A stretch of 64,000 bases of DNA from an uncultured Solirubrobacterales bacterium (lineage in GTDB: Bacteria; Actinomycetota; Thermoleophilia; Solirubrobacterales; 70-9). A program made the translations under genes and the position numbers. Location: the NCBI GenBank assembly GCA_963729065.1, contig CAVSMS010000003.1, positions 8,005 to 72,004 on the forward strand, in the 5' to 3' direction. Under the pieces are notes generated by a model. The model saw only the letters and a list, made by a program, of their open reading frames with translations, made no database searches and was not told the DNA's origin. Shown here piece by piece: positions 2,615 to 63,290 of the stretch. Position 1 is the stretch's first letter. Each line of letters opens with the position of its first letter.

Positions 2615-3001
2615 CTAGTTGAAGCGGCCGTAGGCGACCAGCGCGCCGTTCGTGAGCGTGATGCGGATCGGCGAGCCCGTGACGACACGCGGCACGCCGG
2701 CGCCGGCGCGGTCGATCTCGGCGTCGCCGAACGCGTCGACCGTCGCGGCACCGACGAGCTGGCCCTTGACCACGAACCGAACGCGCTTGCCGGCGAGGGA
2801 CCTAGCGTCCTCGATCTCGGCCTCGAAGTCGCGGACGCCGTCGTCGAGCTGGTTCTTCGCCTTGCCGTTCGCGGCCGGGTAGGCCACCGTGCCCTTGAGC
2901 GTCGCGGTGTGGATGTCGGTCGCGGCGGTCGCGCCCGGCACGGCCACGAGCGCAAGGGCAGCCAGAACTCCGACGATGACGATGCTGATTCGGGATCTCA
3001 C
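2615..3001 (-). CDS. small secreted protein, unknown function
   Basis: 128-aa ORF with a clear signal peptide (MRSRISIVIVGVLAALALVAVPGATA) and protein-like composition. It is followed by a canonical terminator. Confidence 0.65.
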   Translation of the reverse strand: MRSRISIVIVGVLAALALVAVPGATAATDIHTATLKGTVAYPAANGKAKNQLDDGVRDFEAEIEDARSLAGKRVRFVVKGQLVGAATVDAFGDAEIDRAGAGVPRVVTGSPIRITLTNGALVAYGRFN

Positions 3002-3078
3002 AATTGCCTCCTAAGGCGGGGTGGGGGTATCGCCGGGGAGGCTCCTGTGTTCCGAGGCTCGGTTGCAATGGGACATAG

Positions 3079-3088
3079 GTCGTACGAC
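3079..3088. promoter_or_regulatory. palindrome GTCGTACGAC (candidate operator)
   Basis: Perfect 10-bp palindrome 78 nt upstream of the 2615..3001 start. The same core recurs at 3576-3587. Confidence 0.4.
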
Positions 3089-3103
3089 AGGCCACGGCCA
3101 GGG

Positions 3104-3487
3104 TCAGATCCTCACCTTCGCCGCGCATCGCTCACCGCCATCGGTGTTGCGCGCGGTGGCGGTTATGGAGTCGGTCCCAGGCTTGTTCGCGATCTTCCGC
3201 TCGATCTCGAAGGAGCCGCTTGAGCCGCCCGTGACCGCGGAGCCCTTGAAGACGACGTCTCCGTTGTCCTTGAACTTCACCTTCCAGCGATCGCCGCTCC
3301 GGTTCTGGTCCACCTCGAACTCGACCTCGAGCCGGCCGTCGTCGGGCTTCGCCTTGATCTTCGAGCTCGTGGCGCCGGTGCACTGGCCGCCCGCGCGGAT
3401 GTCGTCGTCGGACGCGGTCGCGGCGCCGGGGATCCCCATGGCGGCCGCCGCAGCTCCGGCGGCCAGGACGGTGATCGTGCGCTTCAT
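3104..3487 (-). CDS. small secreted protein, unknown function
   Basis: Start taken at MKRTITVLAAGAAAAAMGIPGAATA (signal peptide) inside the 3104..3514 ORF. Beta-rich mature part with two Cys. Confidence 0.65.
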   Translation of the reverse strand: MKRTITVLAAGAAAAAMGIPGAATASDDDIRAGGQCTGATSSKIKAKPDDGRLEVEFEVDQNRSGDRWKVKFKDNGDVVFKGSAVTGGSSGSFEIERKIANKPGTDSITATARNTDGGERCAAKVRI

Positions 3488-3575
3488 CTCGTTTTCCCTT
3501 CGGTGTGGTGGCACTTCGACCCCACACCTTCGGACCTCGCGCGTCCAGCTTTCAACGCGACATTGGTCCTAAGAC

Positions 3576-3587
3576 GGTCGTACGACC
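3576..3587. promoter_or_regulatory. palindrome GGTCGTACGACC (candidate operator in divergent promoter)
   Basis: Perfect 12-bp palindrome in the spacer between the divergent starts at 3487 (-) and 3660 (+). It shares its 10-bp core with 3079-3088. Confidence 0.45.
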
Positions 3588-3659
3588 AACGTCCGATTGA
3601 AACCACGACGCACCGAAGCGCAGGCTGTTCGCATCAACAACCGATGCGGAGGTGCAGAG

Positions 3660-4058
3660 ATGAACAGGAACGCAAACCGGATCAAGGCGGCGGTCGCCGT
3701 CCTCGCGGCGTCGGCGATCGGCGCGAGCGCCGCGCTGGCCAGCAACGGCGCGGACGACCCGCCCGGCGACGACCGGGGCGGTAACGGCGACGACATCGCG
3801 CTCGTCACCACGTCGACGACGGACACCACGACGCCGACCACGACCGAGGACAATCCCACCCGCGGCGGCGGCGGCGGCGGCGACGACCGGTCCGATGACG
3901 GCCGGCGCGGCCACCGGGGCCGCCACCACGGCCACCGTCATCACCACGGCCACGGCGCCGACGACCATGGCGGGCACGGCAACGAGCCCGGCGACGATCA
4001 CGGCGGGCACGGCGAGCTCGAGCCCGGCGACGATCACGGCGGCTCGGACGACGACTGA
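3660..4058 (+). CDS. secreted His/Asp/Gly-rich protein (putative metal-binding)
   Basis: ATG at 3660 is preceded by GGAGGTGCAGAG. Signal peptide MNRNANRIKAAVAVLAASAIGASAALA. The C-terminus reads RGHRGRHHGHRHHHGHG followed by GDDHGGHG repeats. Confidence 0.7.
   Translation: MNRNANRIKAAVAVLAASAIGASAALASNGADDPPGDDRGGNGDDIALVTTSTTDTTTPTTTEDNPTRGGGGGGDDRSDDGRRGHRGRHHGHRHHHGHGADDHGGHGNEPGDDHGGHGELEPGDDHGGSDDD
3954..4055 (+). repeat. in-frame tandem 36-nt repeat (about 2.8 copies) encoding G(A/D)DDHGGHGxxP
   Basis: Units are 3954-3989 (GADDHGGHGNEP), 3990-4025 (GDDHGGHGELEP) and 4026-4055 (GDDHGGSDDD). Confidence 0.8.
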
Positions 4059-7114: not shown

Positions 7115-7654
7115 TCAGCGCTCGCGCAGCTTGCGGACGGCGGCGCCGGCCGCTGTCTTGGCGTTGAAGGCGCCGGTCATCGCCCGCTCGGCGACCGAGC
7201 CGGACGGGGGCAGGAGGCCGATCTGCTGGGCGAGATAGGCGCCGTTGGTGTAGGCGTGGTTCTCCACGATCTTCTCGTCGACCACGTGGAACATGTCGCA
7301 GCCCTCGAGCTCGACCTTGGCGCCCGTGGGCGCGACCCCCTGGAAGCGCCCGGGCCCGGCGAAGGTCGCCGAGATGCGCCAGCGCGCCGCCGCGTATTCG
7401 CCGGTCGCGACCAGCTCGAGCACCTCGAAGCGCCAGTCGGGGAAGGCCGCGAACAGGTTGCTGAACCAGGCGCGGATGCCCGCGGGGGCGTCGAGGTCGC
7501 CCATCCCGTACATGTGGTCGATCGAGCCCGTCTTCCAGACCGCGAGCGCGCGGTCGAGATCCTGGTCAGCGAGACCGTCGAAGTACTCGCGGACGATCGT
7601 CTTGGCGCCCTTCTTCCGCGGCGTCTTGGTCTTCGTCTCTGCTTCGGTGGCCAT
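7115..7654 (-). CDS. SnoaL-like / NTF2-family protein (ester-cyclase-like)
   Basis: 179-aa ORF with the pattern REYFDGLADQDLDRALAVW ... GAKVELEGCDMFHVVDEKIVENHAYTN, typical of the SnoaL polyketide-cyclase fold. Confidence 0.75.
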   Translation of the reverse strand: MATEAETKTKTPRKKGAKTIVREYFDGLADQDLDRALAVWKTGSIDHMYGMGDLDAPAGIRAWFSNLFAAFPDWRFEVLELVATGEYAAARWRISATFAGPGRFQGVAPTGAKVELEGCDMFHVVDEKIVENHAYTNGAYLAQQIGLLPPSGSVAERAMTGAFNAKTAAGAAVRKLRER

Positions 7655-7663
7655 CGTCTAAAT

Positions 7664-9673
<2,010 letters not shown>

Positions 9674-28438: not shown

Positions 28439-28456
28439 CTAGGGTGCTCGGCGACC

Positions 28457-30141
28457 GTGTCCGCCGCCGGCGCATCGAGCGAGTACGCGGCCACCGCGGG
28501 GCCGACCGGGGCGCCCGTCGCCTGCGGCGCGCTTGGGTCCTACGACGCCGAGCGCGTGCGGAGGATCGCGGCCGGGCTTGGCGACGGCATGCGGCCGGTG
28601 CATGAGGACGAACGCTCGATCCTCTACTGCGACCGCGAGCCGATGGTGTGGCGCGGCGAGCACGAGCGCGGCTACGCGTGGATCGAGGGCGGCGTCTGGC
28701 GCGGAGACCCCTCGAGCTGGGAGGAGGCCTCGAGGCTCGGCGCCTGCGGCATGGCGCTTGACGGGCCGGCGAAGGCTCGTCCACACCTCGGTCTCCGGGT
28801 ACGCGCGGCTCTACTGGATCGAGGATCGCGGCGCGACCTACTTCGCCTCCAGGCTCGACCCGCTCGTTCGCGCATGGCCGCGACCGCTGTCGGTCGACTG
28901 GGACGCCTGGGCGGCGACGATCATCTTCCGCCATCCGGTCGGCGGCCGGACCCCGTTCGCGGAGATCCGTCGCCTCGGGCCCCACGTCGCACTCCGCCGC
29001 CGGCTCGGGCGCTCGCGGGTCGAGCAGCCGGCGTGGCCATGGGCGGAGATCGAGCCGCGGCTGAGCCTCGACGACGGGGCGGACGCATGGGTCGGCGCGC
29101 TGCGCGAGGTGATGGCCTCGCTCGACGGTGAGCTCCTGTGCCCGCTGAGCGGCGGGCGCGACTCGCGGATCGTGCTGTGTGGGGTTCCCTCCGGCCGAGC
29201 GGTGACCGCGATCACGGTCGACGACGACGAGGGCGGGCGCTTCGAGGAGGACCACGCTGCGCCGGTGGCGCGCGTTCTCGGGGTCGAGCACGAGGAGCTT
29301 CGCGGGCGCGCCGAGGACTATCCCCGCGACTGGGATGAGCGGGCGAGGGGCGTCGAGTACCAGTTCGTCGACCACGCGTGGCTCGTGCCGCTCGCGCAGC
29401 GGATCGCCGGCGCGCGCGCGCCGGTGCTCGACGGCGGGGCGATCGACGTCACGCTTCCAGGCCGGCGATCGCTTCTACACCGCCGCGAGCCTCGACACCA
29501 GCCGTCCCCGGGCCGCCAGCGAGGCGCTGTTCGAGACCGTGCGCCGCTTCGGCCACGCCCAGCTGGGGCTCGCGGAAGGCATTCGCGCGCCGCTGCTCGC
29601 GCGCGCCCGCGACCAGTACATGGCCGAGATGAGGCGGTTCGAGGGCCATCCCTCCCAGGGCATCCTGAGCGTCTACTGGACGCGGACCCTCCGCGGGACC
29701 TCGAGCTATCCGGCGGGGCTGCTCGGCGAGTCGGCGCGGGTGATCGTCCCGGGGGCGCGCGACGAGCTCGCCTCGGCCGTGCTCTCGATTCCGCCGGAGA
29801 CCAAGCGCGGCGGGCACCTGTACCCGGCGGTGATGGGGCGTCTGGCGCCGCAGGTCGCCCGCCTGTCAGCGACGACCGACTCGGGGCGCGCGCCGCCCCG
29901 ACTTCCGCGCCGGTGGTGCTCGGAGCCGGCCGTGGCCGCCTACCGCGAGCTGCTGACGCACGGGCCCCTCGCCGGCCAGATCGCACCGGAGCTGAGCGCC
30001 TGGCTCGAGGCGCCCTCGCCCGGGGAGCTCGATGGCCATCACCGCCTCGGGATGGAGGCCGTCGCGCTGCTTCATGCCTGGTGGCGGCGCTACCGGGACT
30101 GCCTCGGCGAGGTCGACGGCCGCGACCTGGCGCGCGGCTGA
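28457..30141 (+). pseudogene. asparagine-synthetase-like (PP-loop) protein, 2 frameshifts
   Basis: Three consecutive frames. Frame 2 runs to about 28765 (ILYCDREPMVWRGEHERGYAWIEGG). Frame 0 runs to about 29455 and contains LCPLSGGRDSRIV (SGGxDS). Frame 1 runs to 30141 (RFYTAASLD...HLYPAVMGRL). There is no N-terminal MCG nucleophile. Confidence 0.65.
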
Positions 30142-30150
30142 GCCGGCCGG

Positions 30151-31324
30151 CTATCGGGGGCGCCGGCGGCGCAGGCGCCGGACCAGGTCCCGTGCCGCGC
30201 GCAGCCGCTCCGTCGCGCGCCAGCTCAGAGTCGACTCGTAGTTGCGCCGGACCTGCTCGGTCTCCGCCCGCGCCCGCTGCGTCTCGCGGGCGTTCGCATC
30301 GACCTCATCCTGCTTGCGGACCAGCTCCCGGCCCAGGCCCTGCGACTCGACCCGGGCGCGCCACTCGAGGCGGACCAACCGCGCCATCTCCTCGTGGGGC
30401 AGGGGCTCGCGGCTCTCGCGGCGTGAGCCGCCGCAGCAGCTCGACCAGCTCCTGGGCATGGACGTTCGCGCGGTGGTTCGCGACCGCCAGGTCGCGGTTG
30501 ACGGGGCCCATCGCGGAGGAGTACGCGGCGAGGTCGGTGCGCAGCCGGGCGCCGTCGATCGTCGCCCCGGGTACGCGGCCGGCGAACCCGTCGGCCTCGA
30601 GCCGGCCGTAGGTGTCGGCGGTCACCCAGCCATCGCCGCCGTGGCGGTCGTATACGTACGCGGCCCGGCCCGACGCCATCGCCTCGAGGATCGACCGCCC
30701 GTAGCCGATCACGATCTCCACGGCGCCGAGCGCCTCGCGCGGATCGTCGGTCTGACCCGCCTCGCCGCCGAGGCGCACGAGCTCGAGCCCGGCGGCCGCG
30801 CAGGCGTCCTCGATCAGGGTCAGGCGGTCCGCGACCGGGTTGTTGCTCAGAAGCAGGGCCCGGCGGGCGGACTCGGGCAGGGGCGTGGAGGCCGTGTTGC
30901 GCTCGACGTCGATCGGCTGGCGCAGGCGCACGATCTCGGTCTCGACCGCGAGCGCCCGCAGCCGCTGGGCGACGCGGTCGTTGAGCGCCACCACCAGACC
31001 GACCTGCCCGGGGAGCTGGGGTGGCAGCTGGAGGTCGAACGTCTCGCTGTGCGCGACGAAGAGCTGCGGGAGATCGGGCAGGCGCCCGGCGAGCTCGTGC
31101 GAGGTCCCGGCGTCCTGCGCGAGCACGGCGTCGAGCTCCCCTGCCGCCTCGATCTGCTCGACGACGCCGATCCCGCGCTCGCGCGCCGCTCGCGCCCCGG
31201 CGCCCGGCTCGCGGGTGTAGATCACGGCCTCGTGCCCGAGCCGGTCGAGCTCCTCGGCGACCGTGAACAGGTACGACTCGCTGCCCCCGAGCCCGAGATG
31301 GTTGGTCGCCAGGACCAGCCTCAT
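30151..31324 (-). pseudogene. GT-B glycosyltransferase (GT4-like) with coiled-coil tail, 1 frameshift near 30415
   Basis: MRLVLATNHLGLGGSESYLFTVAEELDRLGHEAV plus EAMASGRAAYV, as in GT4. The C-terminus continues in ORF 30151..30459 (REPLPHEEMARLVRLEWRARVESQGLGRELVRKQDEVDANARETQRARAE). Confidence 0.65.
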
Positions 31325-36398: not shown

Positions 36399-37751
36399 GT
36401 GAAGGAGCGATCCGCGGACGTTGTCGTGGTCGGTGCGGGCCTTGCGGGGCTCGCCGCGGCGCGGGAGCTGGCCGCCTCCGGGCGGGACCCGATCGTGCTC
36501 GAGGCCCGCGACCGGGTCGGGGGCAGGACCCTGAACGAGCCGATCGGCGACGGCAAGGTGGTCGAGATCGGCGCCCAGTGGGTGGGCCCCACGCAGGATC
36601 GTGTGCTGGCGCTGATCCGCGAGCTCGGGCTCGAGACCTTCCCCACCTACGCCCGCGGGAAGAACATCTTCGAGCGCGAGGGCAAGCTCAGCGAGTACTC
36701 GGGCGCGATCCCGCGCGCCAACCCGGTCGGCCTCGCCGAGGTCGGGGTGGCGATGAAGCGGCTCAACCTGATGGCCGCCAAGGTCTCGCCCGAGGCGCCC
36801 TGGCGCGCGCCCAAGGCCGACCGCTGGGACTCCGAGACCTTCGCGACCTGGATGCGCCGCAACGTCCGCACCGAGGTCGCGCGCGACATCCTGCGGCTGG
36901 CGATCATCGGCGTCTGGGCGGCCGAGCCGCGCGACGTCTCCCTGCTGCACGTCCTCTTCTACATCCGCTCGGCCGGCTCATTGGAGATCCTCATCGGCAC
37001 CGAGGGCGGGGCCCAGCAGGACCGGGTGGTGGGCGGCACGCAGCTGATCTCGCTGCGGATGGCGGAGCAGCTCGGCCCGGTGGTCGAGCTGCAGACCCCG
37101 GTGCGCGCGATCCGCCACAGCGACGCCGGCGTGACCGTCGTCTCGGACCGGCTGGAGGTCAGCGCCCGCCGCGCGATCGTCGCGATTCCCCCGGCGCTCG
37201 CCGGGCGGATCGCGTACGAGCCGGCGCTGCCGGCGGTGCGCGACGGCCTCTCGCAGCGGATGGCGCAGGGCAGCGTCGTCAAGTGCATGGCCGTCTACGA
37301 GCGCCCGTTCTGGCGCGAGCGCGGGCTCTCCGGGGCCGTGACCAGCGTCAGCGGGCCGGTCTCGGTGGGGTTCGACAACTCGCCCCCGGACGGCTCGCCC
37401 GGCGTGCTGCTCGGGTTCCTCGAGGGCCAGGCGGCGCGCGAGGCCGCCGACCTCACCCGCGACGAGCGCCGCCGCCTGGTCGCCGAGTGCTTCGGGCGCC
37501 TCTTCGGCCCCGAGGCGGCACAGCCGATCGACTACGTCGACCGCGCCTGGGGCGCCGATCCCTGGTCGCGCGGCTGTTACGGCGGGTTCATGCCGACCGG
37601 CGCCTGGACGGACTACGGCGCGGCGCTGCGCGAGCCGATCGGCCCGATCCACTGGGCCGGCGCCGAGACCGCCGTGGTCTGGAACGGCTACATGGACGGC
37701 GCCGTCGGCTCCGGCCGGGACGCCGCCCAAGCGGCGCTCGCCAGCCTCTAG
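36399..37751 (+). CDS. flavin-containing amine oxidase (putrescine-oxidase-like)
   Basis: GTG start. FAD motif VVVVGAGLAGLAAARELA..LEARDRVGGRT. The IGAQWVGPTQDRVLALIRELGL pattern and the C-terminal HWAGAETA...GYMDGAV match flavin monoamine oxidases. Confidence 0.9.
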   Translation: MKERSADVVVVGAGLAGLAAARELAASGRDPIVLEARDRVGGRTLNEPIGDGKVVEIGAQWVGPTQDRVLALIRELGLETFPTYARGKNIFEREGKLSEYSGAIPRANPVGLAEVGVAMKRLNLMAAKVSPEAPWRAPKADRWDSETFATWMRRNVRTEVARDILRLAIIGVWAAEPRDVSLLHVLFYIRSAGSLEILIGTEGGAQQDRVVGGTQLISLRMAEQLGPVVELQTPVRAIRHSDAGVTVVSDRLEVSARRAIVAIPPALAGRIAYEPALPAVRDGLSQRMAQGSVVKCMAVYERPFWRERGLSGAVTSVSGPVSVGFDNSPPDGSPGVLLGFLEGQAAREAADLTRDERRRLVAECFGRLFGPEAAQPIDYVDRAWGADPWSRGCYGGFMPTGAWTDYGAALREPIGPIHWAGAETAVVWNGYMDGAVGSGRDAAQAALASL

Positions 37752-37872
37752 TCGCGCTCCGGACGCGCTCCGTCGACACAGCGCGCGCCACCCGCGCGCC
37801 CGCAGCCGCGACTCTCGAGGCGATGGGCCGCCAACCGCACGAAGTGGCAAACATGAGCGACACTTCGCAACG

Positions 37873-38807
37873 TTGGCCGGGAGAGCGGCGCTGGCGGAGC
37901 TCGCGACGCGCCAGCACGGGGTCGTCGCGATCGCCCAATTGCACGAGCTCGGGTGGACGACCACCGCGGTCTCGGACCGCCTGGCGGCCGGCAAGCTCCA
38001 TCGCCTGTACCGCGGCGTGTACGCGGTCGGGCACAGGCGGCTCGCGGCGCGCGGCTCGCTGATGGCTGGCGGTCCTCGCCTGCGGGCCCGAGGCGGTGCT
38101 CTCGCACCGGTCGGCGGCCGAGCTGCGCGGCTGCGCGACGCCGATTCTGGGTCGATCGAGGTACTCGGTCCGAGGCGCGTGCGCAGCGCCAGGCGGGAGC
38201 TTCAGCGCCACGCGTGGTCGGACGACCTCGCCCGACCGCACCGTCGTCGACGGCATCCCTTGCGCGGGCGTGGCCCTGACGCTGCTTGGGGTGGCCGAGG
38301 TCGCGCCCGATTCGCTGGAGCAGGCGATCGCCGCCGCCGAGCGCCGGCGGATGCTCGACCGCCGCGAGCTCGACGGGCTGCTGGAATCCCGCGCCGAGCC
38401 GCCCGGGTGCCGCGGCTCTGCGCATCGCCCTCGCTCGCATCCGCGTCGAGGACGAGTGGTCGCGAAGCGAGTTCGAGCGCCGGTTCTTGCGCCTGTGCAC
38501 GGAGGCCGGGCTGCCGCGCCCACGACTCAACGCCTGGGTCGAGGTCCCGGGCGACGGCTTCGAGGTCGACTTCAGCTGGCCCTCGGCGCGCGTGATCGTC
38601 GAGGCCGACAGCTACCGGTCGCACGGGGATCGCGCGGCCTTCGAGCTCGATCGCCGCAGGGACCAGCTGCTGGCCGCCGCCGGTTGGCGGGTCCTGAGGG
38701 TCACCTGGCGACAGCTCACCGGCGAGCCGCAGCGCGTCGTCGAAGCGCTGCGCCGCCTCGTGCCGATCAGCCCAAGGATGAAGCCGCCGCGGACTCCCAG
38801 CAAGTGA
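37873..38807 (+). pseudogene. AbiEi-N-like / DUF559 (Vsr-endonuclease-fold) protein, at least 4 frameshifts
   Basis: Family-typical segments are spread over three frames: LAELATRQHGVVAIAQL...YRGVYAVG, AVLACGPEAVLSHRSAAELRG, SIEVLGPRRVRSARRELQRH, DRTVVDGIPC...LLGVAEV, and RSEFERRFLRLCTEAGLPRPRLNAWV...EADSYRSHGDRAAFELDRRRDQLLAAAGWRVLRVTW. The switches are near 38067, 38128, 38230 and 38395. Confidence 0.7.
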
Positions 38808-38975
38808 TCGGCCCGAGCATCCGTTGTTCCTTCGTGATGGGAGGCCGGCGTTTCCGCGCCCCGGGCGGGTAATCCGGGTGTAACGTCGCTCTCACTCCAT
38901 CTCAGGCAAAATGACCCCTCTCCCGCGACGCACTCAGAGCAGAGGACAGCCGCGATTAACGCGTAAGAAAAGGAG

Positions 38976-40806: not shown

Positions 40807-41211
40807 TTAGTCCGAGTAGCGCTCGAGCCCGGCCCGGATCGGGTCCGGGATCGGAATCGGGCCCGGCTGCCCGCGCTCGACGAAGACGTGGCGCAGCTCG
40901 CCCTCGGCCACCGGCTCGCCGCCGCGCTCGATCGCCAGGTCGGTGGTCATCGAGGTGTTGCCGAGGCGCACCGAGCGGATCACGAGGTCGGCGTCGTCGT
41001 CGAAGCCGAGCGAGGCGAGGTAGCGGACCCGGGCCTCCGCGACGACCATGTCGACGCCGTCGTCGACCATCCCGGTGTAGCCGCCGATCTCGCGCCAGAG
41101 CTCGGTGATCGCGATGTCGAAGTAGGTCAGGTAGTTGGCGTTGAAGACGTGCCCCTGCGGGTCGCACTCGTGATAGCGGACCTGGATCCGGTATCTGAAC
41201 TGCTCGCCCAC
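40807..41211 (-). CDS. acyl-CoA thioesterase (4HBT / YbgC-like hotdog fold)
   Basis: GTG at 41209-41211 is preceded by GAGAGGA. FRYRIQVRYHECDPQGHVFNANYLTYFD is the 4HBT active-site pattern. There is no stop upstream in this frame until 42123. Confidence 0.75.
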   Translation of the reverse strand: MGEQFRYRIQVRYHECDPQGHVFNANYLTYFDIAITELWREIGGYTGMVDDGVDMVVAEARVRYLASLGFDDDADLVIRSVRLGNTSMTTDLAIERGGEPVAEGELRHVFVERGQPGPIPIPDPIRAGLERYSD

Positions 41212-41249
41212 GGGCGGGGATCCTCTCAGTTGGCGCTGGCGCTCAGCGG

Positions 41250-43658
41250 TCAGAGGCTCGGAGATGCGCTCGACGCGCGCCCGCGCGCGGGCCAGGTCGA
41301 GAGCGTCCTCGGCCGCGGGGGCGCGCTCGAACTCGGCGTCCAGCAGCCGCTCGAGGCGCTCGCGCCAACGCTCGTCGACCAGCCCGAGGTAGGCATGCCG
41401 GTAGCCGGGAGCGGGGACCTCGGCGGCCCGGCCGGCGAGCCGTCCGCGCAGCGCCGCGTACCGTCGCAGCGTCCCCGGCCCCTCGCGGGAGAGCAGCCGG
41501 CGCGGCTCGGTGCGCGCCAGGCGGATGGCGAAGGCCGCGGGCTCCGCATCGCCGCCAGCTCGCGGACGACCGCGCCGTGGAGCTCGCGTCGGGCGCGGCT
41601 CTCGGGCAGGCCGTCGTCGTCGAGGCGCGGCCGCCACTCCCAGAAGCGCTCCAGCAGCTCGCCGACGTCCACGCCCGCCCGCGCCGGGCCGACGCCGGCG
41701 TCCAGCGCGGCCAACGCTGTGGCGAGGCACTGGCGACAGCCGTTGCAGGCGCTCGCGCCGGGCTCGTGGCGCCGGCACGAGTACGCGAGCCGGGCCAGCT
41801 CGGGATAGCGCGACCACAGCAGCCGGCGGATCTGCCATGCGGGCACCGGATAGGTGAGCGAGCCGAGGTCGACCCCCCGCCGGCGCAGGAGCCCGGCGAG
41901 CGCGCCGTGGGCGATCGCCGCACCGGCGAACCGCGGGTGCTGGACCAGACCCCCGTCGCGCTCGGCGGTCGTCTGCAGCTCGGCGGCCGAGCCGAGCAGG
42001 ATCCGGGAGGCGCCGCGCTCCCAGCCGACCGCCAGGGCGGCGGCGAGGTAGAGCATCGGGTCGCTGAGCTCGGAGACGGCGAGCCCGTAGCCGCGGCGGC
42101 GGGCGAAGTCGTTGTCCCAGCACTCGCGCAGGTTCGAGCGCACCTCGACCAGCTCGACCTCGGGGCGCGCGGCGACCGCTTCGAGCGCCGTGCGCCGCCG
42201 GGGCGCCGCGTGATCGAACACGAGCGGCATCGGCGCCGTGGTCGTGACCGCCAGCGGGCGCTCGCCGAGCTCGAGCAGCAGACCGAGGCTCAGCAGGCTG
42301 TCGCGGCCGCCACCGAACGCGAGCGCGACCCGCTCGCCGCCCGGAGGGGGCGCCGGCTCGACGCCGCGGGCCGCCGGTCGCGGATCTCGATCGTTCCGGG
42401 CGAGCTCACGGCCGCCGGCGGCGAGCTCCATCGTCTCGACCGCCGCGTCGAGCAGCCGCAGCCAGAGCTCGCGCTCGCCCGGGGCGAGCTCCACCGGGAG
42501 CTCGACCCGGCAGGGGCGCAGCAACGCCCAGTGGCCGTGCAGGCAGAGCAGAGCGACGAGCCACCAGAGGTCGGCCGGGATCCGGTCGGGTGAGACGGCG
42601 CCGCCGAACCTGAGGTTGAAGCTCTGGCGCGAGTAGAGGTCGGTCGGCGGCTCGACCCGCCACCGGAAGGTGACGTCCTGCGCGCCCGGCTCCGGCGGCT
42701 CCAGGAGGATCCGCCGCACGGCGAGCCCCGGCGGCCTCAGCCGCCCCGCGACGCGGGCGAGCGCCGCAGCGACCGGCCCGGGGGCGTGCGGGGCGACCGC
42801 CTCGCGCAGGCGGCGGTCGCGGATCAGCGCCCGGCGCTCACCGCCGACCTCGAGCCACCCCCGCCGGTTGGAGTTCGCGCGCCAGAGCCGCTCGGTTGCG
42901 CCGGCGCCGAGCTCGAGGTCGCGGTTCTGCCAGCCGGAGTCGGCGGGCTCCCCGGCCTCGTCCGTCCGCCGCCCGTGCTCGACGCGGGCCGCGATCCTCG
43001 ACCGGGCGCGGAGCGGCGCGTGCAGGCAGACGATCTCGGTGCCGGCCTCGATCGGGCCGACCGGGTCGCGGACCTCGTGGTTGCCTGGCAGCAGCCAGGT
43101 CCGCTCGCCCGGGCGCACGACGAGCTTCGACTGCCAGGCGACCTCGACAAGGCTCCATTCGCCGATCGCGACGTGGTAGCGGGCTTCGTCCTGCGGGATC
43201 GTGTGGGCGGGCCGGTGGTCCATGGTCAGCAGGGCGCGCTCGGAGGGCCGGCGGCGGCGACGGCGCTGGACGAAGTTGACGACCTCGATCCGCAGGGCGC
43301 CCGCGTCGGAGGCTCCGAGCACCTGCGGCAGCGGGGCGGGGGCGACAAAGAACTCGTCCGCGTCGATCGGCAGCACCCAGTCGGCACCCTGCCGCCGGGC
43401 CTCGGCGGCGAGCCGGTTGGTGAGCTCGGCCATCTGGAACGGCCCGGGGTCGATGCTGAGCTCCACCGGCAACCTTTGCGCCAGCCGCTCGAGCCGCTCG
43501 CGGGTGCCGTCGGTGGACCCGTTGTCGATCACCAGCACCCGCTCGAGCCCCGCTCCGAGGTGGTGCAGGAGGTTGACCCGGACCAGGTCGGCGACGTCGC
43601 GCACGACCATCAGCCCGAAGACCCTGGGGGCCGCCCCGCCCGCCCCGCCGGGGGTCAC
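41250..43658 (-). CDS. multidomain protein: GT2-like glycosyltransferase + unknown middle + PP-loop/QueC-like ATPase; C-terminus frameshifted near 41550
   Basis: N-terminus: VVRDVADLVRVNLLHHLGAGLERVLVIDNGSTDGT...PIDADEFF (GT2). Residues 470-700: VALAFGGGRDSLLSLG (PP-loop-like) and SCRRHEPGASACNGCRQC. After ...RELAA the protein-like sequence continues in the frame of ORF 40807..42123 (DAEPAAFAIRLARTEPRRLLSREGPGTLRRYAALRGRL...). Confidence 0.6.
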   Translation of the reverse strand: MTPGGAGGAAPRVFGLMVVRDVADLVRVNLLHHLGAGLERVLVIDNGSTDGTRERLERLAQRLPVELSIDPGPFQMAELTNRLAAEARRQGADWVLPIDADEFFVAPAPLPQVLGASDAGALRIEVVNFVQRRRRRRPSERALLTMDHRPAHTIPQDEARYHVAIGEWSLVEVAWQSKLVVRPGERTWLLPGNHEVRDPVGPIEAGTEIVCLHAPLRARSRIAARVEHGRRTDEAGEPADSGWQNRDLELGAGATERLWRANSNRRGWLEVGGERRALIRDRRLREAVAPHAPGPVAAALARVAGRLRPPGLAVRRILLEPPEPGAQDVTFRWRVEPPTDLYSRQSFNLRFGGAVSPDRIPADLWWLVALLCLHGHWALLRPCRVELPVELAPGERELWLRLLDAAVETMELAAGGRELARNDRDPRPAARGVEPAPPPGGERVALAFGGGRDSLLSLGLLLELGERPLAVTTTAPMPLVFDHAAPRRRTALEAVAARPEVELVEVRSNLRECWDNDFARRRGYGLAVSELSDPMLYLAAALAVGWERGASRILLGSAAELQTTAERDGGLVQHPRFAGAAIAHGALAGLLRRRGVDLGSLTYPVPAWQIRRLLWSRYPELARLAYSCRRHEPGASACNGCRQCLATALAALDAGVGPARAGVDVGELLERFWEWRPRLDDDGLPESRARRELHGAVVRELAAMRSPRPSPSAWRAPSRAGCSPARGRGRCDGTRRCADGSPAGPPRSPLPATGMPTSGWSTSVGASASSGCWTPSSSAPPRPRTLSTWPARGRASSASPSL

Positions 43659-44748: not shown

Positions 44749-45662
44749 CTAGCCCTTCCGCTGGAGCCAGAAGCTCGCCGGCACACTCGTGCCCGGCGCG
44801 AAGCCCGGGATCAGCCGGGCGACGCGCTCGGGCTCGCTGCGGGTGACGAGTTGGGAGGAGAAGAGGATCTCGAAGGCGGGGTTGAAGGCGAGAAACGCCT
44901 GCAGCAGGTACTGCTCGGACCAGTACCAGCGCGACCGAAGCGGCCATTTGCGCGGGTACTCCCAGGGGAGGAAGACGTCGTGGAAGTGCACCAGCACGCC
45001 GGGCGCGAGTCGCGGGAGCACCTCGAGGATCAGGTAGTTGACCTCGCTGCCGAGCTTCACCGTGTGGGTCGTGTCGCAGAAGAGCACGTCGCCGGCCTCG
45101 AGCGCCTCGAACTCAGACAGCGGGACCTCGGTGCCGCGGACGGCGTGCAGCTCGGTGTCGAGCGGCTCGATCAGCGGCGACGGATAGGGGTCGATCGTCA
45201 CCAACCGCGCCGGGTGGCCGTCGTCGGCGTTCCGGCGCGCGGCCCGGTCGAGCACCAGGGTGGAGAATCCCGAGCCGACCTCGATCACCAGCCTGCGGTT
45301 TCGAGGAGCGCACGGTGGCGTAGAGCAGGTCCGCGTCGACCGACTCGAACGGACTGGTTGCGGGCGAAGTAGGCGCCCGGGGCCGCTTCGCCGGCGGTCA
45401 GCGGCGGGCTGAACTCGCTGAGGAACGGTTCGAGCCGCTCGAGGTAGGCGAGCTGCTCGGCGGCGACCATCGGCGGCACGGCGACCAGCTCGCTCCTGCG
45501 CTCCCAGGTCTCCTCGTCGATGGTCGCGACATCGGGGATCGGGCTGGCCCAGTCATGCGCCACGAGGTCGTAGCCGAGGTCGGACGCGAGCGTCTCGAAC
45601 GCGCGCCTGCCCCTGTCCGTGGCGAACACCCGTCCCAGCATGGCCCGCAGGCGGCGACGCAC
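44749..45662 (-). pseudogene. class I SAM-dependent methyltransferase (Methyltransf_24-like), 2 frameshifts
   Basis: The N-terminal part is in ORF 45285..45662. A short middle segment (FESVDADLLYATVRSSKP) is in a second frame. The SAM-binding part (VIEVGSGFSTLVL...FCDTTHTVKLGSEVNY) is in ORF 44749..45288. The switches are near 45347 and 45293. Confidence 0.7.
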
Positions 45663-46158: not shown

Positions 46159-47262
46159 ATGCCCAGGATCGTGATCTTCGGTGCCACCGGTTACACGGGC
46201 AGGCTCACGGCGGAGGCGCTCGTCGCCCGCGGCGGGCGCCCGCTACTCGCCGGTCGCAGCGCCGGGCGGCTCGAGGCGCTTGCGGCCGACCTCGGCGGCG
46301 AGGTGGAGACCGCCGTCGCCGACGTCGCGAGACCCGAGTCCGTGCGGGCGCTCGTGGAGCCGGGCGACGTGATCGTGGCCACGGTCGGTCCCTTCGCCCG
46401 CCACGGCGACCCCGCGGTCGAGGCGGCGATCGCGGCCGGCGCCCTGTATATCGACTCGACGGGCGAGCCGGCCTTCATCCGCCGCGTGTTCGAGCGCTAC
46501 GGCGCCGATGCTGCGCGTGCGGGGGCCTCGCTGGTGACCGCGTTCGGCTACGACTGGGTCCCGGGCAACCTCGCCGGCGCGCTGGCGCTGCGCGATGCCG
46601 GCGACGAGGCGACGCGGGTCGACATCGGCTACTACACCACCGACGGCGGCCTCGGGGGGATGAGCGGGGGCACTCGGGCCTCGGCCGCCGGGGCGATGCT
46701 CGAGCCCGCGTATCGTCTGGCGGAGCGGGATCCGGACCGAACGCGGGGCGGTGCGGATGCGCAGCTTCGAGGTCGCCGGCAAGTCGCGCCAGGCGATCTC
46801 GGTCGGCTCCTCCGAGCACTTCGCCCTGCCCGCTCTCTATCCCGGCCTGCGGGAGGTCAACGTCTACCTCGGCTGGTTCGGCTCCAGCTCCCGGGCGATG
46901 CAGGCCATGTCGGCCGTCAACGCCGGCCTCCTGCGGATCCCGGGCCTGAAGTCCGGGTTCGACCGCCTCATCGACCGGTTCGTCCCCACCTCGACCGGCG
47001 GCCCCGACGCCGCCGCGCGCGAGCGAGACCGGGTCGGCGATCGCGGCGATCGCGTACGGCCCGGGGGATCGGGAGCTCGCCAGGGTCGAGGTGCGGGGGG
47101 TCAACGGGTACACGTTCACCGGCCGAGGTCCTCGCCTGGGGCGCGGCCTCGGCGCTGGAGCAGGGGATGGAGGGGGTGGGCGCCCTCGGGCCGGCGTCGG
47201 CGTTCGGCCTCGACCGGCTCGAGGCCGGCTGCGCCGAGGCGGGGATCAGCCGGGTCGCCTAG
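46159..47262 (+). pseudogene. saccharopine-dehydrogenase-like NAD(P)-binding protein, 3 frameshifts
   Basis: Start MPRIVIFGATGYTGRL (Rossmann fold). Segments lie in frames 1, 2, 0 and 1: ...AMLEPAY | WRSGIRTERGAVRMRSFEVAGKSRQAISVGSSEHFALP... | ETGSAIAAIAYGPGDRELARVEVRGVNGYTFTG | AEVLAWGAASALEQG... The switches are near 46715, 47025 and 47125. Confidence 0.7.
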
Positions 47263-48039: not shown

Positions 48040-49252
48040 ATGGCCGTAGCGACCGCGCAATTCCAGGAGAAGACCGACGAGCAGAAGGCGATCACCGAGA
48101 TGGTGCATCAGTTCGTCGACAACGAGATCCTCCCCGTCGCCGAGGAGTTCGATCACGAGGACAAGTTCCCCGAGGCGATCGTCGAGCAGATGAAGGAGCT
48201 CGGCCTGTTCGGGGTCACGATCCCCGAGGAGTACGGCGGGATGGGCCTGGACCTGACCACCTACGCGATGATCGTCGAGGAGCTCTCGCGCGGCTGGATC
48301 TCGATCTCGGGCGTCGTGAACACCCACTTCATCGGCTCCTACCTGGTGTTGAAGTTCGGCACCGACGAGCAGAAGGAGCACTTCCTGCCGAAGATGGCGA
48401 CCGGCGAGCTCCGCGCCGCGTTCTCGCTCTCCGAGCCCGAGGTCGGCTCCGACGTGCAGGGGATCAAGTCGACCGCCAAGCAGGACGACGACGGCAACTG
48501 GGAGCTCAACGGCCAGAAGATGTGGGTCACCAACGGGCTCGGCTCCGGGGTCGTCTTCGTGCTCGATGAAGAGCGACCCGAAGGCCGACCCGCCCTACAC
48601 GGGGATGACCTGCTTCATCACCGAGAAGGAGCCCTGGGTCGAGAAGAACACGGGCGAGTTCGAGGGCCTCGAGATCCCGCCGAAGATCAAGAAGATGGGC
48701 TACAAGGGCGTCGAGTCGACGGAGCTCGTCTACAACGGCTACCGCTGCCCGCCCGAGCGCATCCTCGGCGGCCCCGACGGGGTCGGCCAGGGCTTCAAGC
48801 AGATGATGGACGCGCTCGAGGTCGGCCGGGTCAACGTCGCCGCCCGCGGCGTCGGCATCGCCCAGCGCGCGCTCGAGCTGGCGCTGCGCTACTCGCAGGA
48901 GCGCAAGACGTTCGGCAAGCCGATCGCCCAGCACCAGGCGATCCAGTTCAAGCTCGCCGAGATGGCGACCAAGGTCGAGGCGGCGAGGCTGCTGACGATG
49001 AAGGCCGCGCGGATGAAGGACGCCGGCGAGCGCTCCGACCTCGAGGCCGGGATGGCGAAGCTGTTCGCCTCGGAGACCGGCAAGGAGGTCGTCGAGGAGT
49101 GCTTCCGCATCCACGGCGGCTACGGCTACTCGAAGGAGTACGAGATCGAGCGTCTCTACCGCGACGCGCCGCTGCTGCTGATCGGCGAGGGCACCTCCGA
49201 GATCCAGAAGATGGTGATCGGCAGGAAGGTGCTCGAGCGCAACAAGATCTGA
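48040..49252 (+). CDS. acyl-CoA dehydrogenase, 1 frameshift near 48565
   Basis: ATG at 48040 follows AGAGGAG. The N-terminal half is in frame 1 (FSLSEPEVGSDV, WVTNG). The C-terminal half is in ORF 48566..49252 (GVGIAQRALELALRYSQERKTFGKPIAQHQAIQFKLAEM, GEGTSEIQ). Confidence 0.85.
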
Positions 49253-61128: not shown

Positions 61129-63290
61129 TCAGTCGTCGGGGTAGACGCAGGTCATTCCGCCCGCGCCGGTGATCGCCGCGACTCGCGCTGGCGTTGCGGA
61201 ACTCGATGAACCCAAGGCCCATCTCGTGCTTGTCGCCGTCCTGGAAGACGATCGTGCCCGCGAACGGCAGGCCCGGCGGAGCCCAGAGTGTCGTTGCCGT
61301 AGGGCGTCCCGGCGGGCCGTCGATGATCACCTCGGGATCCGGCCCGCCGTAGGGGATCTCGTAGTCGTGGAACCCTGAGAAGTTCGAGATCCCGACCTCC
61401 AGCCGCCAGGCGCCGTCGGTGGAGATCGCGGTGAAGCCACCCGGGCCCTCGGTGCAGTCGCCGATCTTGAAGCTGGCCACGGGCGTCGTGCTCTCGGGGT
61501 CGTCGAAGATCATGATCCCCGCCGCGGCGCCGGGCAGGACTCGCCGTCCTCGCGGGCGAGCGGGCGCGCCGTGGGGGTGGTCGTGCAGGTCCCCGGGCCT
61601 GGACCCTCGCCCGGGCCCGGCCTGGGCTTCTTGCAGTAGTCCTTGAGCTTCACGCCCTCGAAGCTTGACCACGCGCTTCTTGAACGGGTCGCTGAAGCCG
61701 ATGAACGATGCAGCGCCGACCTGCGGGAGCTGCAGGTTGGTCTGCGTCTGGCACTTGCAACCGCCGGGGATGGCGCAGTAGGCGCCCTTGGCGAGCTTGC
61801 GGGTGTTGCCGTTGGTGCGCAACTCGCCGCGGATGTCCTTGTCGGCGCCGATGATCAGCACGTCGGCCGTTAGCTGGAGGGCGAAGCCGTCGGAGCTGCG
61901 CGCCTCGATCGGGCGGGACTGCCGCTGCCCGTGCCGATCTTGACCGCCTCGGGTTTGGTGGTCGGGATGCCCGGTCCCTCGTAATTCCACTCAGGCCCCT
62001 GGCCGGCGTCGCGAATCAGCCCGGGGCCCCACCGCTGCCAGAAGACGTCCGGGAAGCCCCGCGGTCGCCCGAGCGAAGGCCGCCTGGGGCCCGCCGCGTG
62101 GAGGCGAAGAGGGTGTCGCGCATCCGCTGCCAGCCGTCGACGCCGGTCTGGTTGATCATCGCGAAGAACCCGACCCCCGAGTAGCTGCGACCAAAGAGGT
62201 CGAACTCGGGCAGCTTGAGCCACGGGTTCCAGTCGGCCTCCTCGACCGAGTCGCCGAGTTCCTGGACCGTCATCCCGCCGAGCCAGTCCGCGCCGCCCTC
62301 GATCACCCAGGCCGGGGCCTAGGCGATCTGGTCGGCTGGTGGTGAAGAAGGCGTGCTGCGCGCAGTGCGCGAGCTCGTGCGCGTAGACAAACTCCTGGAT
62401 CGCCGGCGTCGGCCGCGCGGCCGAACTTGGTCATGAAGATGTTGCAGGTCGGCGATTCGCCCGGGGGCAGGTCGTCGTAGGGGACGTAGGCATAGACCTT
62501 CTTGCCCTTGACCACCTTGTCGGTTCGAGGAACGAGACCGAGATCGGGCGCAGCAGCGCGTAGCCGTGCGAGCGCATGACGTTGCGGGCGTTTCGAATGT
62601 GCTCGAGCGCGATGATCTGCTCGTCGACGGTGCCGCCGCTGACCGTGATCTCGTCTCCCGCCCGGCGGTCGGCTCGCGGGCGCGAGCGTACGCCACGCGG
62701 GGGTCGATCCGCGCCGCCGCCGCGTCGTCGACGGGGATCGTGAGCGCGTCGGTCGCCGGGGTGGTCGACCGCGTCGAGCACCTTGCGCTGCTGCTTGGAG
62801 AGCTTCTTCGGCTGGGCCTGGAGGGCCGCGAGCACGAAGGTGGGGTCGCCGAGCTTGCCGATCTGCACCTGTCTGCGGCTTCACCCCCGGCAGGTCGGCG
62901 ATCCGGTGTCGAACGCCGCGAGCGCGTCTGTCGAGCGAGACCTGCCCCTGCTTGTCGATCAGCACCGGCTCGGGCCCGCGGAGCTGCTTGATGCTCGCCT
63001 TGCGCAGCGCCCTTCTTGCACGAGAGCCCGGGCGCACGTAGTCGTCCTGGTAGCCTTCTTGCACTTGTCGCCCTTGCGCAGGCAGGCGTTGCGGCCGTCG
63101 ACGATCGCCTTGGTGCACTTCTTCGCCGAGGCGGCGGTACGCGCCCCGGCGCCGCCGCTCGGCGGGGGCGATCATCAGCACGGCGGCGAACAGCGCCGCG
63201 ACGCCGAGCCGACAGGCGACCCGACCTACTTCCCCGCCAGGCAGAAGCGAACACGGCGCGGAGCCTATTGCCCGCCCTCGGTCGAGGCAA
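61129..63290 (-). pseudogene. relic of a secreted HEXXH zinc metalloprotease (many frameshifts, one in-frame TAG)
   Basis: Recognisable segments hop between all three frames. They include the signal peptide VACRLGVAALFAAVLMIAPA and the Cys-rich KKCTKAIVDGRNACLRKGDKCKK. Next come VQIGKLGDPTFVLAALQAQPKKLSKQQRKVLDAV, GDEITVSGGTVDEQIIALEHIRNARNVMRSHGYALLRP and KVVKGKKVYAYVPYDDLPPGESPTCNIF. The catalytic region is QEFVYAHELAHCAQHAFF, followed by WVIEGGADWLGG. The C-terminal beta domain ends VAAITGAGGMTCVYPDD-stop at 61129. The in-frame TAG is at 62319-62321. Confidence 0.65.

Follow-up and report, generated by a model that had tools for sequence, protein, structure and literature searches.

PP-loop enzymes adenylate a carboxylate or carbonyl oxygen and release pyrophosphate, after which a nitrogen or sulfur nucleophile displaces AMP. 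In the QueC family, the group activated is the carboxylate of 7-carboxy-7-deazaguanine; the nucleophile is ammonia in QueC itself and a protein N terminus in Cap9 (PMC13279940, PMC13329287). QueC has a canonical zinc motif, C(x)8CxxCxxC, and the substrate motifs YxQxHxxE, VPxRN, and YPDC, and the sugar-modifying enzyme WbpG has been placed in the wider PF06508 superfamily to which QueC belongs (PMC13329287). The subject of this article is an open reading frame (ORF) that seemed to add something unusual to this group. It occupies positions 41250-43658 on the minus strand of a 64-kb stretch of DNA from an uncultured Solirubrobacterales bacterium (contig CAVSMS010000003.1), the whole of which we call the window. 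An initial annotation, made from the letters alone, read it as one protein of about 800 residues, a GT2 glycosyltransferase joined through an unassigned middle to a QueC-like PP-loop domain and perhaps fused to a thioesterase as well. We consider it highly probable that the ORF is not one protein but three ordinary neighboring genes, merged by assembly insertions and deletions (indels). What keeps its value is the family of the middle gene, as yet uncharacterized, and the conserved glycan module around it, and these make a modest lead.

One reading frame, probably three genes

The individual features reported for the ORF are all where they were said to be. The ORF listing gives a product of 802 amino acids (aa) in a window of about 72% G+C. 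Pfam bears out the N-terminal GT2 domain at residues 20-145 (PF13704, 55.5 bits against a cut-off of 27.5; PF00535, 26.2 bits against 23.3). VIDNGSTDGT lies at residues 43-52 and PIDADEFF, by its sequence a DxD metal/nucleotide-sugar motif, at residues 97-104. The PP-loop FGGGRDS is at residues 448-454 (42317-42297) and the Cys cluster SCRRHEPGASACNGCRQC at residues 627-644 (41780-41727). Beyond the GT2 domain, Pfam recognized nothing in the ORF, and no NCBIfam family matched it at E<=1. The jump of frame suspected near residue 706 is also real in the sequence. A third-position GC plot and a frame-tracking model both put the shift of coding signal at about 41550, into the frame of ORF 40807-42123, and the alignment of intact homologues to the window by tblastn breaks between 41541 and 41532. 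That second frame, as the initial annotation had it, is free of stops up to the thioesterase domain (PF13279/PF03061, residues 315-431 of ORF 40807-42123).

The protein matches tell of separate parts. When the whole ORF was used as the query, the best coverage by any match was 53%; the protein collection did not contain the 802-aa product itself, and the matches fell into two groups. The first consists of GT2 proteins that align to the first 35% or so only. The second consists of stand-alone hypothetical proteins of 489-517 aa that align to residues 314-706, including P0001 (77% identical) and, similarly, P0003 and P0006. Laid on the window by tblastn, the stand-alone homologues begin at GTG 42719, keep to the ORF's frame as far as 41541, and run on in the other frame from 41532 to 41251. 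Because they continue in the other frame, the final 97 residues of the ORF are out-of-frame noise; judged from these alignments, the true C terminus of the middle protein is encoded in the frame of ORF 40807-42123.

We would therefore replace the single product with three codirectional minus-strand genes: a GT2 glycosyltransferase, a QueC/QatC-like PP-loop ATPase of about 490 aa, and a YbgC-type thioesterase. The proposed parts are as follows.

42737..43658, minus strand: gene for a GT2-family glycosyltransferase of about 305 aa (Pfam PF13704/PF00535), with its inferred true stop at TGA 42739-42737
42720..42736, minus strand: intergenic spacer of 17 nucleotides (nt), translated in the 802-aa ORF within GRLRPPGLA; the spacer of L001 is also 17 nt there
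41226..42719, minus strand: gene for a QueC/QatC-like PP-loop ATPase of about 490 aa, with start GTG 42719 and inferred true stop TGA 41228-41226
42297..42317, minus strand: PP-loop FGGGRDS (family consensus F-SGG[KR]DS)
41727..41780, minus strand: Cys4 cluster C-x9-C-x2-C-x2-C, a QueC-type zinc ribbon as predicted from the motif
41221..41227, minus strand: Shine-Dalgarno-like GAGAGGA, 9 nt 5' of the thioesterase start
40807..41211, minus strand: gene for a YbgC/4HBT-type acyl-CoA thioesterase of 134 aa, with GTG start at 41211 and TAA stop at 40809-40807

The relatives have just this layout. P0001 is encoded on a 229-kb contig, L001, that is identical to L004, a Solirubrobacterales metagenome-assembled genome (MAG). 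Its gene order is Methyltransf_24, HpcH/HpaI, GT2 (305 aa), P0001 (495 aa), 4HBT (134 aa), two small genes, and PEPCK. The same order is found on the window's minus strand and in L003. In L001, the GT2, P0001, and 4HBT genes are called separately, with spacers of 17 and 16 nt. At both junctions in L002 and L003, which represent a second species, one gene ends at its own stop and the next has a start of its own. The idea of a single 800-residue protein, perhaps running on into the thioesterase, is thus unsupported, given three genes in L001/L004, L002, and L003, from which the window departs by one or two bases per junction.

Each part also matches its separate counterpart. The GT2 gene starts at GTG 43658, overlapping the stop codon of the upstream HpcH/HpaI gene, and its product shares 82% of 303 aligned aa with the GT2 of L001, a stand-alone protein of 305 aa. 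The stop of the L001 gene aligns with TGA 42739-42737 of the window, and L002 and L003 use TAG at the aligned position. A weak sequence match in the Protein Data Bank (PDB) is to GmaR. The middle gene is 76-78% identical to P0001, with the identity spread over two frames. Three pieces account for the "unassigned" stretch of about 200 residues: the C-terminal half of the 305-aa GT2, some 10 residues of translated spacer, and, from the next gene, an N-terminal domain of about 125 aa. The thioesterase is recognized by PF13279 (57.1 bits, cut-off 25.5) and PF03061 (48.3 bits, cut-off 20.6). Against NCBIfam TIGR00051 (YbgC/FadM), it scores 63.9 bits, under the cut-off of 68.7, so only the general superfamily assignment stands. 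With the 134-aa product of the separate L001 gene it shares 92% identity over 133 aa, and AACTGAGAGGAT is kept in all four genomes (the window, L001, L002, and L003).

Further afield, in L005 and L006, the thioesterase still adjoins PEPCK, and a DegT gene and about 1.2 kb more lie between it and the PP-loop gene. The thioesterase thus belongs to a conserved PEPCK flank, as a separate gene rather than a domain of the protein upstream. We considered a functional tie between the PP-loop gene and the thioesterase and rejected it on the same grounds, since in L005 and L006 the thioesterase stays by PEPCK, apart from the PP-loop gene.

Where the extra bases lie

Three- and four-way DNA alignments of the window with L001, L002, and L003 located the insertions. 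All are on the minus strand.

42745..42752, minus strand: one extra nt (about 42750), situated 10 nt ahead of the GT2 stop (against L001, L002, and L003)
42360..42401, minus strand: scrambled stretch ARNDRDPRPAARGV with three separate 1-nt insertions, at about 42396, 42374, and 42363
41533..41540, minus strand: two extra nt at about 41535, the frameshift that had been noticed (against L001, L002, and L003; tblastn break 41541/41532)
41243..41252, minus strand: one extra nt at about 41246 (L001 lacks one base here, L002 and L003 lack two)

On our reading, some eight inserted bases at six places would have joined three genes and broken the middle one. The base at about 42750 puts TGA 42739-42737 out of frame, so that the GT2 reading enters the next gene, whose start is GTG 42719. 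Take that base away and the GT2 ends A-R-V-R-G-G-stop, against A-R-L-R-G-G-stop in L001. The insertions at about 42396, 42374, and 42363 fall within 33 nt; they turn R-[AT]-IEI-x-DRGPR-[LV] into NDRDPRPAARG and then restore the frame. The motif that they scramble is conserved in an alignment of 20 stand-alone family members (alignment A1) and corresponds to strand E110-114 in the model of P0001. Finally, the base at about 41246 carries the reading past the conserved stop of AAC-TGA-GAGGA (41228-41226), and since the spacer that follows is shorter by 2 nt, translation remains in frame into the thioesterase.

At each of these critical points, the window alone carries the extra bases, compared with L001, L002, and L003. 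Without them, the GT2 stop returns, as do the IEIxDRGPR strand, a single frame, and the stop at AAC-TGA. In the window, all the original signals (stop, start, and Shine-Dalgarno) remain, merely out of frame. The corrected sequence splits the ORF into ordinary separate genes, an outcome that the initial annotation itself had named as refuting its reading. Programmed frameshifting at 41535 was also considered and found no support: compared with L001, L002, and L003, the site just has 2 nt more.

Assembly error or mutation?

The genes are separate in the relatives, the insertions at the junctions are specific to the window, and the window holds many other frame breaks. We infer from the pattern of these breaks that the insertions are technical rather than real mutations, most likely indels introduced into the consensus of a metagenome assembled from long reads only. 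Over the 64 kb, the frame-tracking model shows some 25 changes of frame that involve no stop, roughly one per 2-3 kb. The nearest genomes belong to the Microflora Danica MAGs, assembled with Flye from Nanopore data alone and polished once with Medaka (PMC12313526). They have their own faults. Within the corresponding 5.1 kb, L002 has 27 private insertions of 1 nt, and the L002 HpcH gene is broken into three frames where the window copy is intact; the PEPCK gene of L003 (8778-10585) is broken into two frames where, again, the window copy is intact. Breaks that are private to each assembly, scattered, and mostly single-base insertions are the signature of consensus error, not of inherited pseudogenes.

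Short reads point the same way. Unitigs of short-read soil and plant metagenomes, 95-96% identical to the window, are without some of the extra bases. The base at 41246 is absent from Illumina-derived unitigs of three relatives in three independent runs (X2 record 9, X4 record 26, and X6 record 25). All three bases at 42396-42363 are absent from L001 and from one Illumina-derived unitig of a relative about 96% identical (X1 record 7).

Some points weigh against this reading. The window is absent from the species-representative genomes, and the sequencing technology behind it is deduced from its relatives. Among public reads and unitigs, none spans 41508-41542 or 42700-42760, the 35-nt matches there being spurious, and in a search of public runs the best hold 5-20% of the window's 31-mers and come from distant or low-depth relatives, with no reads of the source sample among them. 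At 41535 and 42750, error and mutation are therefore not rigorously separable. The frame breaks are also unevenly spread: there are many at 41-51 kb and 61-63 kb but not one at 31-38 kb, a clustering that local decay might produce. Lastly, true fusions of the family to GT2, pyruvyl-transferase, and DegT partners exist elsewhere, so that a join to GT2 is not in itself far-fetched.

The better of the two alternatives, though an unlikely one, is that the insertions are real and that the GT2/PP-loop/methyltransferase cluster is decaying to pseudogenes in this strain, the long ORF being a by-product. The clade of the window (the window, L001, and L003) is already without the pyruvyl-transferase-GT2 and DegT partners usual in most genomes, and the 41-49 kb stretch, which holds many breaks, is more divergent from L001 (76-86% aa identity) than are its flanks (92-99%). 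By gene, the housekeeping neighbors are 92-99% identical to L001 at the protein level and the GT2, PP-loop, and methyltransferase genes 76-82%; L003 is 83% identical to the window in DNA, though both are 77% identical to P0001. Other results weigh against decay. The ratio of nonsynonymous to synonymous substitution rates (dN/dS) over the in-frame parts of the middle gene is 0.35 for window-L001, 0.31 for window-L003, and 0.38 for L001-L003. It is no higher in the pairs that include the window than between intact relatives, so there is no sign of relaxed selection in the window lineage. Three +1 insertions that restore the frame within 33 nt would be an odd mutational pattern, and some 25 breaks in 64 kb, metabolic genes included, an implausible load of pseudogenes for a free-living soil actinobacterium. 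The private breaks of related MAGs in PEPCK and HpcH also speak for error and against decay.

A true multidomain enzyme, GT2 plus QueC-like ATPase with or without the thioesterase and perhaps made by ribosomal frameshifting at about 41535, is very improbable: the GT2 and PP-loop parts do share one stop-free frame and the family is naturally joined to glycan enzymes in other lineages, but the linker is translated intergenic spacer with the old stop and start in place, the scrambling hits a conserved strand, a conserved C-terminal helical domain is cut by the break at 41535, where no slippery motif is evident, and the thioesterase retains its own Shine-Dalgarno sequence and start and travels with PEPCK. 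The homologues were suggested as the arbiters here, through whether they include a hotdog domain. Neither a GT2_4+family nor a family+4HBT architecture occurs in any of 110 word-index matches. None of the six long profile matches scanned with Pfam has the GT2_4+family join or a hotdog domain. The four longest scanned profile matches that have only a C-terminal extension (P0120, P0129, P0142, and P0157) contain no 4HBT domain.

With assembly error preferred, the fused architecture is most likely an artefact and should stay out of protein catalogs as a new multidomain family. There is a wider warning as well: this window, like similar long-read-only MAGs, has a break of frame roughly every 2-3 kb, so an unusual fusion or split gene in it needs the same check.

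Breaks of this kind occur in other genes of the window. The AsnB-like gene at 28443-30195 on the plus strand, which has a PP-loop of its own (LSGGRDS), is read through three frames in turn, changing near 28774 and near 29455 without a stop, and is probably another gene broken by indels; an AlkZ-like gene is spread over four frames (both judged by eye from the translated segments). The Methyltransf_24 gene at 44749-45662 on the minus strand lies in three frames, as ORFs 45285-45662 and 44749-45288, against a single 301-aa gene in L001 (tblastn); the split arises from one added base at 45350 together with another shift near 45295. A saccharopine-dehydrogenase-like gene at 46159-47256 on the plus strand, 59% identical to L001 by tblastn, has a stretch out of frame at about 46712-47023 in the frame model, and the acyl-CoA dehydrogenase at 48040-49249 on the plus strand lies in two frames relative to L001, switching near 48566. 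As a separate observation, the densest cluster in the window is at 61147-63053 on the minus strand, a stretch of 1.9 kb whose frame changes number eight or more; the protein encoded there has an HExxH-like motif (HELAH).

A small PP-loop family

Freed from its neighbors, the middle gene stands as a real member of a PP-loop family that is small and has no annotation. Among 1.84 billion cluster representatives, an exhaustive search with a profile recovered 145 at E<=1e-30 and 583 at E<=0.001. In alignment A1, the N-terminal domain is conserved (W..V.L.CLH.HW.LLRPCRV.LP), as are the motifs F-SGGKDS, TTTSP, DH..PRRR, VEV.S..R..WDN, and LASEAE.Q......VQHPHF and the Cys motif QYSCW-x8-C-x2-C-x2-C; the C-terminal region is helical and ends EPL. 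Among 75 full-length members, 64 have SGG[KR]DS and 65 have C-x9-C-x2-C-x2-C, the predicted zinc motif. The window and P0001 share a rare variant of the loop, GGG[RK]DS. In P0003 and P0026, the loop has the canonical form SGGKDS.

Annotation resources are silent on the family. Pfam, NCBIfam, and PADLOC have no significant model for it: 20 intact members gave no Pfam model above threshold, DUF6395 and DUF7411 appearing only below it, and a literature search found no paper that mentions DUF6395.

The predicted fold is more informative. An AlphaFold2 model of P0001, built on alignment A1, has a mean predicted local distance difference test score of 92.8 and a predicted template modeling (TM) score of 0.92. 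Strand E129-134 followed by helix H138-149 bears the PP-loop motif. Foldseek against the PDB puts QatC first (9y02_B, E 4.2e-6, TM 0.40/0.45, over nearly the full target), then TtuA, MnmA, YcfA, and QueC, with argininosuccinate synthase a further match; on the length of QueC (3bl5), the TM score is 0.61-0.63. A profile search of PDB sequences matches MJ0690, QatC, LarE, and TtuA, confined to the PP-loop segment. As modeled, the family thus belongs to the PP-loop ATP pyrophosphatase superfamily by its core fold, its SGGxDS loop, and several structural matches. The initial annotation had called the domain QueC-like, and at the level of fold and motif (QatC, TtuA, MnmA, YcfA, and QueC by Foldseek), this is supported; membership of QueC proper, or of QatC, is not.

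QatC, QueC, and the sugar amidotransferases

QatC (PDB 9y01/9y02 and 9zee), from the QatABCD antiphage system, is the best structural match to the family model. It alone aligns over nearly the full length of the family target (424-433 columns, E 4e-6), and both proteins have an extra N-terminal domain followed by a PP-loop Rossmann core. The profile match to QatC falls on the SGGxDS segment. Yet the TM score is only 0.40-0.45 and the identity 16%, and the long C-terminal helical domain of the family (residues ~340-495) superposes poorly on QatC. The gene company differs too. There is no QatA (ATPase), QatB, or QatD (TatD nuclease) near the family genes, whose neighbors are GT2, pyruvyl transferase, DegT, HpcH/HpaI, and thioesterase genes. 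PADLOC models gave no family at E<=1 for P0001, P0003, P0026, or P0033. Membership of the Qat defense system, which the top fold match had raised, was rejected on gene context and PADLOC.

Like the family, QueC (7-cyano-7-deazaguanine synthase, PF06508; PDB 3bl5) has its PP-loop SGGxDS close to where the catalytic domain begins, and the fold match of the family model spans most of QueC. The Cys4 motif of the family, C-x9-C-x2-C-x2-C, is one residue longer than the C(x)8CxxCxxC of QueC. Members are twice the size of QueC, with extra N- and C-terminal domains, and have no queuosine or deazaguanine gene context. PF06508 does not match the window ORF at E<=1 and matches three of the 20 aligned members weakly (best E 0.023). 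YxQxHxxE, VPxRN, and YPDC occur in none of the 75 full-length members. With PF06508 not significant and the substrate motifs absent, an assignment of the middle gene to QueC proper is unsupported.

The N-acetyl-sugar amidotransferases WbpG and PseA resemble the family in another way. They too combine a PP-loop ATPase with a Cys-rich motif, and their genes lie beside those of glycosyltransferases and sugar aminotransferases. The Cys motif of these enzymes is not that of the family and runs in another order, CxxC(x)6CxC, and they are 300-400 aa long against about 490 aa for the family. Models for N-acetyl-sugar amidotransferases matched neither the 802-aa ORF, in which most of the domain is included (NCBIfam at E<=1, and Pfam), nor the 20 intact members (Pfam). 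As PP-loop enzymes already known in glycan pathways, WbpG and PseA are nonetheless the nearest precedent for the chemistry we propose below, adenylation and then nitrogen attack on a sugar substituent.

A candidate glycan module

Where the family occurs in species-representative genomes, all 58 loci are in MAGs, from Solirubrobacterales, Thermoanaerobaculia and other Acidobacteriota, Binatia, Blastocatellia, and Anaerolineae. The neighborhood is regular. A polysaccharide pyruvyl transferase fused to a GT2 domain lies directly upstream in 38 of the 58, a DegT/DnrJ/EryC1 aminotransferase directly downstream in 34, and 43 have the pyruvyl-transferase-associated GT2 domain. Several proteins are true fusions with these partners: PS_pyruv_trans-family (P0115, P0141, and P0121), PS_pyruv_trans-GT2-family (P0124), family-PS_pyruv_trans-GT2 (P0120), family-GT2 (P0129), and family-DegT (P0032 and others). 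The clade of the window has a reduced version, GT2_4-family-thioesterase, without pyruvyl transferase or DegT. The candidate module is found in soil Solirubrobacterales, Acidobacteriota, and Binatia known from MAGs only, and our search of the literature found no paper on a pyruvyl-transferase/PP-loop/aminotransferase module.

What might such an enzyme do? The ATP loop and the Cys4 ribbon are kept, the deazaguanine motifs are absent, and the gene is linked to glycan enzymes; we therefore propose that it would activate a carboxylate on a sugar or glycan. The family would adenylate a carboxylate of a sugar or glycan intermediate, for example, that of a pyruvyl ketal made by the neighboring pyruvyl transferase, or of a uronic acid. 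An amide would then be formed with ammonia or with an amino sugar made by DegT. The middle family may thus provide an ATP-dependent amidation or amide-ligation step in glycan modification. This chemistry is drawn from fold and neighborhood alone, a caveat that counts against it. Only tentatively, and with a good deal of doubt, do we suggest a new QueC/QatC-like ATP-dependent ligase or amidotransferase that is the third enzyme of an undescribed module, alongside pyruvyl transferase-GT2 and DegT. A PP-loop family with a confidently predicted QueC/QatC-like fold and a regular link to pyruvyl transferase, GT2, and DegT is nevertheless a testable lead into cell-envelope glycan modification in uncultured soil bacteria.

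Some loci depart from the usual arrangement. Two family paralogues stand in tandem or near-tandem in L010, L022, L033, and L045; in L022, DegT is joined to the first copy, and the second, which follows it, stands alone. In L020 (Solirubrobacterales), the family gene is directly followed by an AMP-binding (acyl-CoA-synthetase-like) enzyme, not the usual DegT context, and a radical-SAM protein lies about 2 kb upstream (L020 coordinates 2639-3811 on the minus strand and 7542-9029 on the plus strand).

Another feature of the window

Between the amine-oxidase gene and PEPCK, at 37750-38970, the window has a short variable islet of overlapping ORFs. Its counterpart in L001 is a helix-turn-helix gene and a 171-aa gene, and in L002 it is a 679-aa product with a weak match to AbiEi_4.

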